A stretch of DNA of 64,000 nucleotides from an uncultured Gammaproteobacteria bacterium (GTDB taxonomy: Bacteria; Patescibacteriota; Microgenomatia; UBA10105; UBA927), in assembly GCA_964609895.1 (NCBI GenBank), contig CAZSTG010000003.1:7574-71573 (forward strand), read 5' to 3'. Position 1 is the first letter of the stretch; each line of letters opens with the position of its first letter. Under the pieces are notes generated by a model. It ran no database searches. It was not told the origin of the DNA and was given only the letters and a program-made list of their open reading frames with translations. Below are positions 24,010 through 64,000 of the stretch, in pieces. A program made the translations under genes and the position numbers.

Positions 24010-24037
24010 TTGACAAAGAAGAAAAATGCACGATAAT
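24010..24037 (+). promoter_or_regulatory. sigma70-like promoter (TTGACA-N16-GATAAT) driving the glyS leader
   Basis: TTGACA at 24010-24015 and GATAAT at 24032-24037, read directly from sequence. Confidence 0.5.
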
Positions 24038-24045
24038 GAAAGGAG

Positions 24046-24193
24046 AACGCGTTGACAACCCTGGCAAGGTTTGAGCGGAAAAAAAAGAAATCAAGTGGGT
24101 ACAAGTCATTGGGATATCATGTTGTACCAAGCAGGGTGGAACCACGGGTCATACTCGTCCCTAGCATGTGTATGTGTGCGGGCGAGTTTTTTT
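24046..24193 (+). promoter_or_regulatory. T-box riboswitch-like leader (glycine specifier GGC-A candidate, compact Stem I, Stem III, antiterminator/terminator)
   Basis: GGCA at 24063-66. 7-bp hairpin GGTACAA/TTGTACC at 24098-24128 (Stem III position). T-box core AGGG-UGGAACC-ACG...CGU-CCC at 24133-24161 reproduces A1 / 7-nt UGGNACC bulge / A2 of the antiterminator. Overlapping terminator. 72 nt upstream of glyS. Confidence 0.5.
24154..24193 (+). terminator. intrinsic terminator of the glyS leader
   Basis: CTCGTCC...GGGCGAG, 7-bp stem including a G-U pair, followed by TTTTTTT (24187-24193). Confidence 0.5.
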
Positions 24194-24265
24194 ATGGCAA
24201 TCAAAGAAGTATACGCTGATGGAAAATTTTCTGCATGAGCGTGTACGATTTGATACAATAAATCT

Positions 24266-25582
24266 ATGACGAAGTTAGAGGAAATTATTGCACTCTGTAA
24301 ACGGCGCGGATTCGTGTATCCGACCAGTGATATCTATGGCGGTATCGGCGGATTTTATGATCTGGGACCGCAGGGAGTTGCCTTGACGCGGAATATCAAA
24401 GAGGCATGGTGGAAGGAAATGGTGACGAGCCGTGATGATGTGGTGGGACTTGATTCTGCAATTATTCTCAATCCAAAGACATGGGAAGCGTCAGGACATG
24501 TTGCCGCGTTTACCGATCCTCTGATTGAATGTAAACTCTGTCACAGCAGGCTTCGCGCAGATCAGGAAGATGAGATTGCCGCACACATTGCCTCTCATAA
24601 AACAAAAGGGGAACAAGATGTCATATTTACTGAACCTCGGCAATTTAATCTGCTTTTTAAAACATTTGTAGGTCCGGTAGAGGATTCAAAAAGTGTTGCA
24701 TACCTTCGTGGAGAAACGTGTCAGGGAATCTTCACCAATTTTAATAATATCGTAATGTCAAACCGCGTGAAGATTCCGTTCGGTATTGCGCAGATTGGGA
24801 AGGCATTCCGGAACGAAGTGACGCCGGGAAAATTCCTGTTTCGGGTTCGTGAATTCGAACAAATGGAACTTGAATATTTTGTTGAACCGAAAGATGCTGA
24901 CAGCGCGTTTGCCATGTGGAAAGAAAAACGGATGGCGTGGCACCTTTCCTTGGGTATTTCCAAGGAAAATATCAGATTACGGCAGCATGATCAGACGGAA
25001 CGGGCACATTACGCATCAGATTCTTGGGACATTGAGTATAATTTTCCGGAATGGGGTTTTAAAGAGCTTGAGGGACTTGCAAATCGTACAGATTATGACT
25101 TGAAAATACAGAGTAAATGGAGCGGTAAGGAATTGAAGGTAACGAATCAGGAAACAAAGGAAAGCTATTATCCATATGTTATCGAACCGTCGGTCGGCGT
25201 CACACGACTGATGCTTGCATTGTTATTTGAGGCATATACCAAAGACGGTGAACGAACTGTGTTGAAGTTCAAGCCCAGCCTTGCACCATACATGGCGGCA
25301 GTGTTTCCGCTGTTGCCAAATAAGGCGGAGCTTGTCACAAAAGCACGTGAGGTATACCTGATGCTGAAGGAAATATTTCCAACCACGTGGGATGACCGCG
25401 GTAACATAGGGAAACGATATCTTGCACAGGATGAAATCGGCACGCCGTGGTGTGTCACCATCGACTTCACCACGCTTGAAGATGGCGCCGTAACTATAAG
25501 AAATCGTGATACAACAACACAGGAACGTATTAGTGTACCTACTCTTGTTGACTATATTCATGCTCATAAACAATTGTCATAA
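24266..25582 (+). CDS. glyS: glycine--tRNA ligase, alpha2 (eukaryotic/archaeal-like) type
   Basis: MTKLEEIIALCKRRGFVYPTSDIYGGIGGFYDLGPQG N-terminus is diagnostic of class II dimeric GlyRS. 438 aa. Confidence 0.9.
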   Translation: MTKLEEIIALCKRRGFVYPTSDIYGGIGGFYDLGPQGVALTRNIKEAWWKEMVTSRDDVVGLDSAIILNPKTWEASGHVAAFTDPLIECKLCHSRLRADQEDEIAAHIASHKTKGEQDVIFTEPRQFNLLFKTFVGPVEDSKSVAYLRGETCQGIFTNFNNIVMSNRVKIPFGIAQIGKAFRNEVTPGKFLFRVREFEQMELEYFVEPKDADSAFAMWKEKRMAWHLSLGISKENIRLRQHDQTERAHYASDSWDIEYNFPEWGFKELEGLANRTDYDLKIQSKWSGKELKVTNQETKESYYPYVIEPSVGVTRLMLALLFEAYTKDGERTVLKFKPSLAPYMAAVFPLLPNKAELVTKAREVYLMLKEIFPTTWDDRGNIGKRYLAQDEIGTPWCVTIDFTTLEDGAVTIRNRDTTTQERISVPTLVDYIHAHKQLS

Positions 25583-26050: not shown

Positions 26051-26078
26051 CAGAACACACAACATATACAAATAAAAA

Positions 26079-26105
26079 TAGAGGCGAATCCGCCTCTATT
26101 TTTTT
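26079..26105 (+). terminator. rho-independent terminator
   Basis: TAGAGGCG-AATC-CGCCTCTA: perfect 8-bp stem, 4-nt loop, then 7 T. Confidence 0.65.
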
Positions 26106-61939: not shown

Positions 61940-62173
61940 ATGTTGACAGGAATGCTGTGGACTGTTGATTCAGTTCCAACTCTCGCTGATATTCAACGCG
62001 GGATAGATTTTTACGAAAAAAAATACGGCATAAAACCAGACCTTTGCTACTACTCTCAGAATGAAGTAAATTTTCCGAAACTGCCGAAGACATTAACTCG
62101 GGAACTTGAGTGTGTCGCATCGGACAAAATCAATGTAGGCAGTATATGGTTTGGCAAAAAGAAAGGAAACTAA
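61940..62173 (+). CDS. small hypothetical protein (77 aa)
   Basis: SD AAGGAG 7 nt upstream of ATG. No recognisable motif. Confidence 0.35.
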   Translation: MLTGMLWTVDSVPTLADIQRGIDFYEKKYGIKPDLCYYSQNEVNFPKLPKTLTRELECVASDKINVGSIWFGKKKGN

Positions 62174-62286
62174 ATAACAATTACATACCATGATGAAACT
62201 AATACAACCGAGATTTTTCTCGTTCATCCTTTCGAGGATATTGTTGTATTAGTTTTCTGCAACTTGGCCGTATAAAAAATGTTATA

Positions 62287-62315
62287 TTGAGGACAGGTGT
62301 CTATTTTGCTATACT
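62287..62315 (+). promoter_or_regulatory. sigma70-like promoter TTGAGG-N17-TATACT for the ileS leader
   Basis: Read directly from sequence. Confidence 0.45.
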
Positions 62316-62321
62316 AAGAAA

Positions 62322-62499
62322 AGCAAAAAAGCGTCATCATCTGTCATCAGCAGAGAATCGCTTGAATAAAGAACGTCTGTGCAAAGACAAGTAGAATATT
62401 CCGGGTAAGCCCGAAACAGCTGTCATTAAGAAGCAATAAAGGTGGTACCACGAACATCCGTTCGTCCTTTGTGTAATAATAAAGGAGGACGGTTTTTTT
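62322..62499 (+). promoter_or_regulatory. T-box riboswitch leader of ileS (antiterminator with 7-nt UGGUACC bulge; AUC-A specifier candidates upstream)
   Basis: A1 AAAGG/CCUUU (62438-42 and 62466-70). Bulge TGGTACC 62443-49. A2 ACGAAC/GUUCGU (62450-55 and 62460-65) with loop AUCC. ATCA at about 62335-62348. Mutually exclusive terminator 62458-62499. Confidence 0.65.
62458..62499 (+). terminator. intrinsic terminator of the ileS leader; its 3' arm contains the ileS SD (AAAGGAGG)
   Basis: CCGTTC(g)TCCTTT / AAAGGAGGACGG, 12-bp stem with one bulge, loop GTGTAATAAT, then 7 T (62493-62499). Confidence 0.6.
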
Positions 62500-64000
62500 A
62501 TGGCAACACTACATATCGTATCAGGTGAAAAAACGAACATTCCCGCATGGGAGCATGATGTCCTCACGTTCTGGGATGAAACACATGCGTTTGAACAGTC
62601 CATCTCCTCTCGTCCTGCGGATAAACAATACGTATTCTACGACGGCCCTCCGTTTGCAACTGGCCTTCCGCATTACGGACATATACTTGCTTCCACCATC
62701 AAGGATGTGATTCCCCGCTATTTCACCATGAAGGGATACCGCGTAGATCGGGTCTGGGGATGGGATTGCCATGGCGTGCCAATTGAAAACATGATTGAAA
62801 AAGAACTCGGACTTACGGGTGGCAAAAAAGGCATTGAGGAGTTGGGTATCGGGAAATTCAACGACGCATGCCGCGATGCGATTCTGCGGTTTGACAAGGA
62901 ATGGGAAAAAGTGGTCAGGCGCATCGGTCGGTGGGTTGACTTCAAACATTCCTACAAAACCATGGACAAGACCTATATGGAATCCGTATGGTGGGCTTTC
63001 AAATCATTGTTTGATAAAGGGCTCGTGTATGAAGGGCGGAAAGTTATTTTGTATTGTCCGCGCTGCGCAACCCCGCTTTCCAATTTCGAAATCGCAATGG
63101 ACAACAGCTACAGGGATGTGGAAGAAGCGTCAACCACCTATAAATTCAAAGTCACAGGAGATACTGATACATATTTCCTTGCATGGTCGACAACACCGTG
63201 GACAAAACTTGTTACGACGGCACTTGCCGTGAATCCTGATTTGACATATGTGTTTGCAAAACAGGGCAATGAAACATATATATTGGCTGAGTCGCGACTC
63301 GCATCGCTTGATGAGAGGCCGTATGAAATCATAAAAAAGGTGAAAGGCTCGGATCTGCACGGCATGCATTATGAACCGCTGTATGATTTTTATCCGGAAC
63401 GGACAAAAGAGGAAACAGCGTTTATTGTTGTGGCGGATACATATGTCACGGCAACTGAGGGAACGGGAATCGTAACGCTTGCTGTGTATGGAGAAGATGA
63501 TTACCGCGTCATGAAAAATCATCATGTGCAGCTTGCGGAACATGTGGATACGGACGGCAAATTGAAAAAAGAAGTAACACCGTGGGCAGGGATGTACATC
63601 CTGAAGGCAAATCCGCTCATTGATGAGGATTTGAAAAAGCGCGGTCTGATATACAAGGAGGCGCGGATCACACACAGTATACCGACGTGCTACCGATGTG
63701 AAACCCGTTTGTATTATGCGCCCGTTCCCGCGTGGTTTATTGATATACAAAAAATAAAGCCGCAGCTGATGGAACAGAATCAACATATCAACTGGTATCC
63801 TTCGTATTTAAAAGAAGGACGGTTTGGAAAAGGGCTTGAACAGGCACCGGACTGGAATGTCTCACGGAGCAGATATTGGGGAACGCCGATGCCGATATGG
63901 GTACACACAGATGCTGACGGCAACGTGACACGACGAATCATCGGGTCTGTTGAGGAACTCAAAACATGGGCGGTTGATTCCGAATCAGTCAAAGACATCA
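62500..64000 (+). CDS. ileS: isoleucine--tRNA ligase (5' 500 codons; continues beyond the window)
   Basis: Not in the ORF track because there is no stop in the window. Translated here: MATLHIVSGEKTNIPAWEHDVLTFWDETHAF...YDGPPFATGLPHYGHIL (HIGH-class motif, IleRS-type)...WDCHGVPIE. The frame stays open to nt 64000. Confidence 0.85.
   Translation, partial: MATLHIVSGEKTNIPAWEHDVLTFWDETHAFEQSISSRPADKQYVFYDGPPFATGLPHYGHILASTIKDVIPRYFTMKGYRVDRVWGWDCHGVPIENMIEKELGLTGGKKGIEELGIGKFNDACRDAILRFDKEWEKVVRRIGRWVDFKHSYKTMDKTYMESVWWAFKSLFDKGLVYEGRKVILYCPRCATPLSNFEIAMDNSYRDVEEASTTYKFKVTGDTDTYFLAWSTTPWTKLVTTALAVNPDLTYVFAKQGNETYILAESRLASLDERPYEIIKKVKGSDLHGMHYEPLYDFYPERTKEETAFIVVADTYVTATEGTGIVTLAVYGEDDYRVMKNHHVQLAEHVDTDGKLKKEVTPWAGMYILKANPLIDEDLKKRGLIYKEARITHSIPTCYRCETRLYYAPVPAWFIDIQKIKPQLMEQNQHINWYPSYLKEGRFGKGLEQAPDWNVSRSRYWGTPMPIWVHTDADGNVTRRIIGSVEELKTWAVDSESVKDI

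Follow-up and report, generated by a model that had tools for sequence, protein, structure and literature searches.

T-boxes are the textbook RNA elements that sense tRNA charging, and CPR bacteria are organisms with tiny genomes that do not synthesise amino acids and have few known regulators. Sherwood reportedly described ileS T-boxes with an "ultrashort Stem I" in 2015. Of the published architectures, Class III is defined by a short Stem I without the distal elbow-binding platform (IDTM), a specifier in an apical loop of 5-6 nt, and dependence on Stem II (PMC10482949). In current reviews, designs with a short Stem I go with translational control in Actinobacteria (PMC7583486), and T-boxes that act on transcription are argued to depend on the elbow contact to capture tRNA quickly (PMC7583486, section 6.2); a G-U pair at the top of helix A2 is described as the aminoacyl sensor (PMC7583486, Table 1). 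The TBDB search for this class took in Actinobacteria genomes and, beyond these, only those Class I-model leaders that were flagged with a truncated Stem I (PMC7778990). An incomplete survey of the literature turned up no work linking T-box riboswitches with CPR taxa, which is not proof of novelty.

Here we describe a leader upstream of ileS near the end of a 64,000-nt stretch of DNA (the window) that, judged by its sequence, is an Ile-specific T-box occupying positions 62329-62499. It joins a decoding module of the Class III type to a hairpin and U-tract of the form found in transcriptional T-boxes.

The ileS leader and its decoding module

The product of the gene belongs to the class I aminoacyl-tRNA synthetases (Pfam PF00133, 5.7e-86) and is 88% and 84% identical to the IleRS of Microgenomates and Gottesmanbacteria genomes, which by sequence places the host in the CPR as a Microgenomates/Gottesmanbacteria-like bacterium, in keeping with the CPR-like lineage suspected in the initial annotation. 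The gene, the promoter and the elements of the leader as far as the linker before the antiterminator are as follows.

62287-62315, + strand: promoter, with -35 TTGAGG (62287-62292), TG (62307-62308), -10 TATACT (62310-62315) and a spacer of 17 nt
62329-62363, + strand: short Stem I, from the covariance model match and the per-leader breakdown
62329-62333 / 62359-62363, + strand: basal helix P1 of Stem I, AAGCG / CGCUU
62334-62339 / 62355-62358, + strand: K-turn-like internal loop of Stem I, UCAUCA / GAAU
62340-62344 / 62350-62354, + strand: Stem I hairpin, UCUGU / GCAGA
62345-62349, + strand: Stem I apical loop of 5 nt, CAUCA
62346-62349, + strand: specifier AUC (Ile) with its 3' purine A, in the Stem I apical loop (the second AUCA)
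62364-62401, + strand: Stem II, with lower helix GAAUA (62364-62368) / UAUUC (62397-62401)
62369-62373 and 62389-62396, + strand: Stem II S-turn strands, AAGAA and AAGUAGAA
62375-62378 / 62385-62388, + strand: Stem II upper helix, GUCU / AGAC
62402-62421, + strand: Stem IIA hairpin, CGGG (62402-62405) / CCCG (62410-62413), and F-box-like segment AAACAGCU
62422-62437, + strand: short linker with purine tract AAGAAG (62428-62433)
62500-64000, + strand: ileS coding sequence, cut off by the window's end, with the ATG at 62500 as the sole in-frame start candidate

The promoter, already noted in the initial annotation, is predicted to start transcription near 62322, and it is conserved: in 44 of 51 related leaders the 45 nt preceding the model start contain a -10 hexamer that matches at five or more of six positions, compared with 19.9 ± 3.3 (maximum 30) in shuffled controls, and 32 of them have the TG of the extended -10. 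We rejected as a gene an 88-aa open reading frame on the minus strand (62337-62603), which overlaps both the leader and the start of ileS. A tRNA search of the window and of 60 loci, meant to check the anticodon and discriminator of tRNA-Ile, found no tRNA gene.

We find that a covariance model derived from CPR sequences matches 62327-62471 with a score of 102.6 bits (E ~1e-25). Its seed comprises six related CPR ileS leaders that were annotated by hand and does not include the window; it was built in this way because MAFFT misaligned the variable A2 region, and from the plain MAFFT alignment RNAalifold retrieved no more than the specifier hairpin, Stem II and IIA. The same model matches 51 of 80 related Microgenomates ileS loci, each from a species-level genome. 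Across 53 aligned sequences, in an alignment fitted to the model's own structure, 95% of cells pair (66% when shuffled, 27-51% in slid controls), double changes are found in 470 cells where 143 are expected, and 28 of the 32 pairs show compensatory changes. The leader as a whole folds with z = -3.8.

Rfam model RF00230, on the other hand, gives this leader 31.1 bits, far short of its gathering score of 93 (local search E 2.8e-5), and has no match anywhere in the window at the gathering threshold; standard annotation at the Rfam threshold misses these ileS leaders. The initial annotation had named a sub-threshold cmsearch score together with a lack of covariation in homologous leaders as the outcome that would speak against a T-box: the score does fall below threshold, but covariation is strong, and its identification of a T-box leader for ileS stands on the independent model and on that covariation. 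The low RF00230 score would also suit a chance resemblance or a decaying relic without regulatory role, as would the lack of any leader in the close relatives L003, L004 and L020, whose IleRS are 78-79% identical. Such an origin is very hard to reconcile with the score of the independent model, with compensatory changes on the scale seen in the 53 sequences, and with conservation of promoter, specifier, bulge and terminator alike, nor are the relatives' leaders recent copies of one sequence, as their IleRS are 59-88% identical to that of the window; we give this explanation almost no weight.

Stem I is short, with an interior of 25 nt where the RF00230 model has 91, and the distal elbow-binding platform is absent, the hairpin terminating instead in the specifier loop. 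Three pairs of P1 are 95% paired in the 53 sequences, two of them with compensatory changes, and the six pairs of the hairpin reach the same 95%, each of them showing compensatory changes. In the window the K-turn motif is a degenerate one, CA...GA rather than GA...GA, with two extra nucleotides on the 3' side; most relatives show ...GA ahead of the Stem I hairpin and either GA or AA behind it. In the large majority of aligned leaders the specifier loop reads NNAUCA, NAUCA or something close to these, with the 6-nt NNAUCA the commonest form among relatives and a few loops ending in AUCG or AUCC; in several relatives the model misaligned an inserted hairpin, and the AUC-bearing hairpin was seen by eye. 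An AUC specifier had been expected at one of two AUCA sequences, and it is the second that occupies the loop. The first, at 62336-62339, was rejected as specifier since it is not conserved (AUUA in L001, ACGA in L002), and a further AUC at 62357-62359 was rejected since it overlaps the P1 helix.

Stem II follows Stem I without a linker, the 3' strand of P1 ending at 62363 and Stem II beginning at 62364. Among the 53 sequences pairing reaches 98% in its lower helix and 95% in its upper helix, all five pairs of the former and all three of the latter showing compensatory changes, and the GAA...AGUA motif between them aligns with Stem II of the Rfam T-box consensus. Stem IIA is paired at 99% in the same sequences and is nearly invariant in relatives (CCGGGUAAGCCCGUAAUAGC); together with AAACAGCU it presumably forms the IIA/B pseudoknot. 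The candidate IIB bases (GC...GC) never vary, and one candidate third IIB pair did not covary when inspected by eye. Stem III is absent in the window, where no nucleotide aligns to the 17-nt Stem III of RF00230. The linker between IIA and A1 is 24 nt long here, and about half of the relatives have an extra hairpin in this place, with linkers of 37-95 nt; the remaining purines, AAGAAG-C-AA, suggest a collapsed Stem III.

Antiterminator, terminator and the level of control

The downstream half of the leader holds the following elements.

62438-62470, + strand: T-box sequence and antiterminator, from covariance, Rfam alignment and energies
62438-62442 / 62466-62470, + strand: A1, AAAGG / CCUUU
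62443-62449, + strand: NCCA-binding bulge of 7 nt, UGGUACC
62450-62455 / 62460-62465, + strand: A2, ACGAAC / GUUCGU
62458-62499, + strand: predicted intrinsic terminator, with 5' arm 62458-62470, 3' arm 62479/62481-62492 and U7 62493-62499
62472-62480, + strand: extended -10-like element TG-T-AATAAT, in the terminator loop
62484-62488, + strand: Shine-Dalgarno-like GGAGG, in the terminator 3' arm, 11 nt from its end to the A of the AUG

The sequence features recorded in the initial annotation (A1, the bulge, A2, a 12-bp terminator with U7, two AUCA sequences and GGAGG) are all present where it had placed them. In the 53 sequences A1 is paired at 94% and A2 at 90%, 10 of their 11 pairs showing compensatory changes, and 41 of the 53 have UGGUACC as the bulge. 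At the top of A2, next to the bulge, the pair is A62450-U62465 in the window and not G-U; in the family it is AU in 24 leaders, GC in 17, UA in five, UG in three, and CG and GU in one each. The 5' arm of the terminator shares 62458-62470 with the 3' strands of A2 and A1, which bears out the earlier claim that the two helices are mutually exclusive, and the calculated energies are -8.4 kcal/mol for the antiterminator and -13.1 (12 bp) to -17.1 kcal/mol (14 bp) for the terminator.

The terminator helix has 12 bp with G62464 bulged, or 14 bp if extended, and is followed without a gap by U7 and then by the ATG; only 1 of 500 shuffles of the hairpin folds as well. This is the form that defines an intrinsic terminator, a stable G+C-containing hairpin with an immediate U-tract, and termination is predicted from it. 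Most of the 50 relatives analysed carry an equivalent hairpin of 10-18 bp directly abutting a run of 5-9 U, and across these leaders the hairpin and U-run are kept with the start codon anywhere from 0 to >150 nt downstream; that they are kept wherever the start codon lies argues that transcription attenuation is the conserved mechanism. A crude complementarity test of the A1 3' five-mer against the last 14 nt before the U-run, positive in 26 of 44 leaders and for 43% of mismatched partners, carries no information, since every strand is rich in pyrimidines and the helices contain bulges. A simple terminator scan misses 62458-62499 because the loop exceeds its 8-nt limit, and a general terminator scan of 40 kb showed no enrichment over shuffles. 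One clear bidirectional terminator, at 26074-26103, was seen in the 40-kb scan.

We consider it likely that the riboswitch at 62329-62499 controls ileS mainly through tRNA-dependent transcription antitermination, tRNA binding and termination being ascribed to it by analogy with the T-box family. [quoted passage not shown] If the tRNA is uncharged, its NCCA end would pair with UGGU of the 7-nt bulge and stabilise the weak antiterminator, so that RNA polymerase reads into ileS; if it is charged or absent, the more stable hairpin at 62458-62492 with U7 would form, and the transcript would end just before the ileS AUG.

Several observations count against this reading. The leader is without the elbow contact that published reasoning requires of transcriptional T-boxes (PMC7583486), and the lack of Stem III, the A-U pair at the top of A2, the degenerate K-turn and the sub-threshold Rfam score were weighed on the same side.

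Translation may be controlled as well, as the initial annotation proposed, with one tRNA-dependent helix both terminating transcription and sequestering the ileS ribosome-binding site in read-through transcripts. In about 14 of 50 leaders, which come from about seven lineages, only 0-2 nt separate the AUG from the U-tract, so any ribosome-binding site there must be in the terminator 3' arm, and this arm is purine-rich (GGAGG, GGAG or AGGA). The lowest-energy fold of the full leader contains the terminator, which means that, without tRNA, the stretch upstream of the AUG at about -8 to -21 would be base-paired, and relatives with distant starts have AAGGA-type motifs 5-9 nt before the start, an indication that the wider lineage uses Shine-Dalgarno sequences. 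However, the conserved CCUUU dictates GGAGG by pairing, and no selection as a Shine-Dalgarno sequence is needed; the 11-nt spacing is also long. A simple motif scan, moreover, finds any Shine-Dalgarno-like motif within 20 nt upstream in only 13 of 54 window ORFs, and a strong motif at 4-9 nt in about five of the 54, while a -10 box right before the ATG of many window genes suggests leaderless mRNAs. Helix and U-run are also equally conserved where they are out of reach of the start region, in leaders whose start codon is 20 to >150 nt away. We regard dual control as rather unlikely; a Shine-Dalgarno role for GGAGG is possible but weak.

A purely translational Class III T-box, in which the helix is a sequestrator only and the U-run an A/U-rich spacer before the AUG, is improbable. 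It would accord with the decoding module, since Class III is reported to regulate mostly translation (PMC10482949), and with a window helix that contains GGAGG and has the AUG directly after it. It does not account for relatives that keep 5-9 U after the helix with a start codon 17 to >150 nt downstream that has a Shine-Dalgarno-like motif of its own, and a hairpin with U7 is the standard form of an intrinsic terminator.

The element at 62472-62480 could conceivably act as an internal promoter or a sigma-dependent pause site, although we are doubtful of either role. As a promoter it would give T-box-independent basal ileS transcripts from about 62487, with the T-box adding inducible expression above a constitutive floor; as a pause site it would hold the polymerase and allow more time for tRNA binding. 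A -10-like hexamer (at least 5/6) lies 10-17 nt, mostly 12-13 nt, before the U-run in 10 of 16 AUG-abutting leaders, compared with 1.9 ± 1.2 in shuffles, of which 0 of 500 reached 10; leaders with distant starts have it at chance level (4 of 28). The hexamer varies among lineages (AATAAT, TATAAT, TATACT, TACAAT, TATAGT), the genome has many extended -10 boxes placed 7-9 nt ahead of a start codon, and glyS has an extended -10 downstream of its own T-box terminator. Against such a function, the composition of A/U-rich loops makes them resemble -10 boxes, the 16 leaders are related by phylogeny and come from about seven lineages, and a -35 element is absent.

A second, glycine-specific leader

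A second and even more minimal T-box, for Gly, is found at 24045-24193 of the same window, with similar leaders in L083 and L151. It has the codon GGC followed by A, a UGGA bulge and a terminator with U7. Its Stem I is a hairpin of 4-5 bp with the codon in a 7-nt apical loop, the K-turn is canonical, Stem III is flanked by AAGUG and AA, and the Stem II domain is absent. We take UGGA to fit U73 of tRNA-Gly, just as UGGU of the Ile leader would fit A73 of tRNA-Ile; this contrast within one window lends indirect support to the T-box reading of the ileS leader.

The Gly leader resembles Class II glyQS T-boxes in GGC plus A, UGGA, the absence of Stem II, the K-turn, Stem III and the terminator, and differs from them in its truncated Stem I, having neither the elbow contact nor a Stem II S-turn. 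This combination of features is absent from all four published T-box classes, and the variant, if functional, would be the smallest tRNA-sensing riboswitch known.

Relation to described T-boxes

Matched against the published description, the architecture of the ileS leader is of the Class III type known from the ileS genes of Nocardia and Mycobacterium. Like those of Nocardia farcinica and Mycobacterium tuberculosis, it is Ile-specific and lies upstream of ileS, and it shares with them the short Stem I, a K-turn-like motif that is degenerate in the window, the lack of an elbow-binding distal motif and of a linker joining Stem I to Stem II, the GAA/AGUA S-turn of Stem II, the IIA hairpin with F-box-like sequence, and the same bulge and A1/A2 core. 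AUC-A sits in an apical loop of 5-6 nt in both, 18-20 nt from the first P1 pair here and 16-18 nt in N. farcinica. The expression platform is a different one, a hairpin with U7 of the intrinsic terminator form where Class III leaders are described as having mostly Shine-Dalgarno sequestrators. Unlike in Class III, Stem III, which the window lacks, is optional in the CPR family, the A2 top pair is A-U in the window and G-C in some relatives but not G-U, and the host belongs to CPR/Microgenomates rather than to Actinobacteria.

With the Class I leaders of Firmicutes (Bacillus subtilis tyrS, Staphylococcus aureus ileS; RF00230) it has in common the promoter, the mutually exclusive antiterminator and terminator, the U-tract, Stem II, the presumed IIA/B element, the T-box sequence AGGUGGUACCACG and a specifier followed by a purine. 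It departs from them in lacking the long Stem I, the AG bulge, the distal loop or interdigitated T-loop platform, and Stem III, and in holding the specifier in an apical loop and not in an internal loop with its own S-turn. The word "canonical", which the initial annotation had used, does not suit a leader with these differences, an A-U pair where G-U is described and an RF00230 score so far under the gathering score.

The ileS family, with short design and terminator at 51 of 80 species-level loci, offers a natural test of the kinetic argument for elbow contact. Control of aminoacyl-tRNA synthetase genes by tRNA charging would be one of few nameable regulatory circuits of the CPR, and an ileS T-box in these bacteria fits an old origin among Terrabacteria-like lineages. 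We tentatively suggest, as a proposal that may well not hold in full, that Microgenomates (CPR) carry an undescribed branch of T-boxes that sense charging co-transcriptionally without the elbow. Its Ile members would combine the Class III module with a terminator and dispense with Stem III, the -10-like element of the loop possibly offsetting slow capture as a pause or basal promoter, and its Gly members would represent a fifth, minimal architecture beside the four published classes, in which only the apical-loop codon and the NCCA-binding bulge contact the tRNA.

Identity and anatomy of the ileS leader

All the sequence features listed for this region by the initial annotation are present in 62287-62502, and comparison with related loci adds a short Stem I. 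The ileS leader comprises the following elements:

62287-62315, promoter-like TTGAGG-17-TATACT, with TG upstream of the -10
62329-62333 / 62359-62363, Stem I basal helix, 3-5 bp
62340-62354, Stem I hairpin, 5 bp, apical loop CAUCA
62346-62348, specifier AUC, followed by purine A62349
Antiterminator, helices A1 (AAAGG/CCUUU) and A2 (ACGAAC/GUUCGU) flanking the bulge UGGUACC
Terminator helix, 12 bp (14 bp when extended), its 5' arm shared with A2 and A1 on their 3' side
62472-62480, extended -10-like element TG-T-AATAAT in the terminator loop
62493-62499, U7 tract, followed by ATG at 62500

Energy evaluation gives -8.4 kcal/mol for the antiterminator vs -13.1 to -17.1 kcal/mol for the terminator; an equally good terminator hairpin arises in 1 of 500 shuffles, and the entire leader folds with z = -3.8.

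At the gathering threshold Rfam returns no match anywhere in the window, and the RF00230 search proposed by the initial annotation stays below it even in permissive local mode (31.1 bits, E = 2.8e-5, vs a gathering score of 93). That match covers the full model, but it has 25 nt in the Stem I interior, where the model has 91, and 0 nt in place of the 17 of Stem III. We used an IleRS fragment as query to collect 80 related loci at 88-59% identity, many of which carry GGUGGNACC directly 5' of ileS. These are labelled Microgenomates, Gottesmanbacteria, Woesebacteria, Pacebacteria or 'Patescibacteria group', which confirms the suspected candidate phyla radiation (CPR) origin of the sequence; further records labelled Gammaproteobacteria or Pseudomonadales are probably mislabelled bins. 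A covariance model built from six relatives' leaders, leaving out the window and its two nearest relatives, scores 102.6 bits (E ~1e-25) over 62327-62471 of the window and finds 51 of the 80 loci. By the initial annotation's own standard, a sub-threshold score would count against the T-box only if covariation in homologous leaders were missing too, and here the result is clearly the opposite: compensatory changes occur in 28/32 pairs, with 470 cells changed on both sides vs 143 expected and standard pairs in 95% of cells vs 66% when shuffled and 27-51% with slid partners, in an alignment that is fitted to the model and so biased toward structure, the gap to both controls still being large. In an earlier plain MAFFT/RNAalifold run, the specifier hairpin and Stem II already showed compensatory changes.

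The internal loop of Stem I is K-turn-like, GA...GA in most relatives and a degenerate CA...GA in the window, and the stem has no distal platform. AUCA occurs twice in the leader; since the apical loop NNAUCA, or a near variant, is kept in the large majority of relatives, AUC at 62346-62348 is taken as the specifier, and the first AUCA, which is not conserved, was rejected. Stem II joins Stem I without a linker, its covarying lower and upper helices enclosing an AAGAA/AAGUAGAA S-turn, and is followed by a nearly invariant IIA hairpin and an F-box-like segment, from which a linker of 24 nt, containing the purine tract AAGAAG, leads to the T-box sequence. An extra hairpin (Stem III) sits at this linker in about half of the relatives and is absent from the window. 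The A2 pair adjoining the bulge is A-U, not G-U.

The distribution of the leader is patchy, with 29 of the 80 loci lacking it. Among these are three close relatives (L003, L004 and L020; IleRS 78-79% identical), in which a DUF2079 membrane-protein gene precedes ileS and only a -10 box lies a few nt before the ATG.

Output of the switch and neighbouring start signals

Among the 50 leaders analysed, most have a hairpin of 10-18 bp that contains the A1 CCUU strand and runs straight into 5-9 U. Hairpin and U-run are kept both with the start codon immediately 3' and with 17 to >150 nt of spacing, so that what is conserved as output is an intrinsic terminator. Transcription attenuation is, on these comparisons, the best-supported mechanism of the ileS leader. 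An extended -10 promoter lies a few nt 5' of Stem I in 44/51 leaders vs 19.9 +/- 3.3 in shuffles.

The initial annotation went further, proposing that one helix gates both transcription and translation of ileS. The GGAGG on which this relies does lie within the terminator 3' arm, and the AUG adjoins the U-tract in ~14 of 50 leaders, the window's included, which places that arm within the ribosome footprint; however, pairing with CCUUU already requires GGAGG, its 11-nt spacing is long, and few of the window's genes are preceded by a Shine-Dalgarno motif, with a -10 box right before the ATG in many of them. Joint gating is possible, with attenuation still the better-supported reading. A simple scan finds any Shine-Dalgarno-like motif before 13 of 54 window ORFs and a strong one at 4-9 nt before ~5; this rarity, and the TATAAT-like boxes that often abut start codons (e.g. 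19550, 29639, 32974), suggest that leaderless or very short-leader mRNAs are widespread in the window.

The -10-like element in the terminator loop recurs at the same position in nine related loci (L001, L002, L007, L008, L009, L016, L067, L077, L078), as TATAAT, TATACT, TACAAT or TATAGT, 10-17 nt (mostly 12-13) from the U-run. Such a hexamer is present in 10/16 leaders whose AUG adjoins the U-run vs 1.9 +/- 1.2 in shuffles, and in 4/28 with a distant start codon, which is chance level. Its role may lie in basal transcription from an internal promoter or in pausing.

Two related loci, L014 (418-475) and L080 (2898-2956), carry GGUAC(C) in place of the usual terminator 3' arm. This complements a palindrome within the T-box bulge, GGUACC, and would be a different shut-off of the switch; a promoter-like GTGGCATAAT or GTGGCATACT, which follows the U-run and lies 7-9 nt ahead of the ATG, is possibly a bypass promoter.

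A large inverted repeat occupies 62196-62257, between a 77-aa ORF (61940-62173; no match in Pfam) and the ileS promoter. Its 13-bp arms, AAACUAAUACAAC and GUUGUAUUAGUUU, surround a smaller hairpin, CGAGAUUUUUCUCG. The repeat, which L001 shares, may terminate transcription of the preceding gene, and weak Rfam microRNA and snoRNA matches there were dismissed as spurious. Long ORFs of the 64-kb window are nearly all on the + strand, with positive GC skew throughout, and ARAGORN finds no tRNA genes there or in the related ileS loci L001-L060, which together span ~400 kb.

A second, glycine-specific leader

A second T-box leader lies at 24010-24193 (+), 5' of ORF 24266-25582, where the CPR ileS model matches 24045-24164 at 30.4 bits and Rfam reaches 39.3 bits (threshold 93). 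Its elements are:

24010-24037 (+), promoter TTGACA-16-GATAAT, the best promoter-like site in its 20-kb region
K-turn (+), canonical, CGC-GUU-GA...GA-GCG
24063-24066 (+), GGC-A in the 7-nt apical loop of a 4-bp AACC/GGUU hairpin
24137-24143 (+), bulge UGGAACC
24154-24186 (+), terminator, then U7

The Stem II domain is absent, and Stem III is present between AAGUG and AA. The ORF encodes a class II synthetase core domain (G, H, P, S, T) and an HGTP anticodon-binding domain, consistent with a GlyRS-type class II synthetase. Two metagenome relatives, L083 and L151, share the design, with compensatory changes in the stems. Further 3', beyond the terminator, a separate extended -10, TG-A-TACAAT (24251-24259), precedes glyS and ends 6 nt before the ATG, whose A is the 7th base after it; the same promoter occurs without a T-box in the relative L081.

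Relation to described T-box classes

The ileS leader fits Class III T-boxes as defined in the literature and exemplified by N. farcinica ileS: a short Stem I, no elbow-binding motif, a required Stem II and an apical loop of five or six nucleotides that holds the specifier (PMC10482949). TBDB likewise places the specifier of such leaders in the Stem I hairpin loop (bioRxiv 10.1101/2020.06.17.157016). The described discriminator core (PMC7583486 Table 1) differs in having G-U where this leader has A-U next to the bulge, and in its Stem III. The initial annotation is right in calling this a T-box leader of ileS, but the word canonical is not supported, since distal platform, Stem III and G-U pair are all missing. 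None of the four published classes covers the Gly leader, in which elbow platform and Stem II are both absent.

Reviews describe a long Stem I that makes the elbow contact as a general requirement of transcriptional T-boxes, and assign short or 'ultrashort' Stem I designs mostly to actinobacterial leaders that act on translation (PMC7583486 section 6.2; PMC10482949). The TBDB search for Class III covered only Actinobacteria genomes and Class I model matches flagged for a truncated Stem I (PMC7778990), and we found no link between T-box riboswitches and CPR taxa in the term counts of the literature searched, whose coverage is incomplete. The leader type is widespread yet patchy in Microgenomates and is missed at Rfam's threshold. 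It combines a Class III decoding module with an intrinsic terminator as its expression platform, and Stem III is optional in it.
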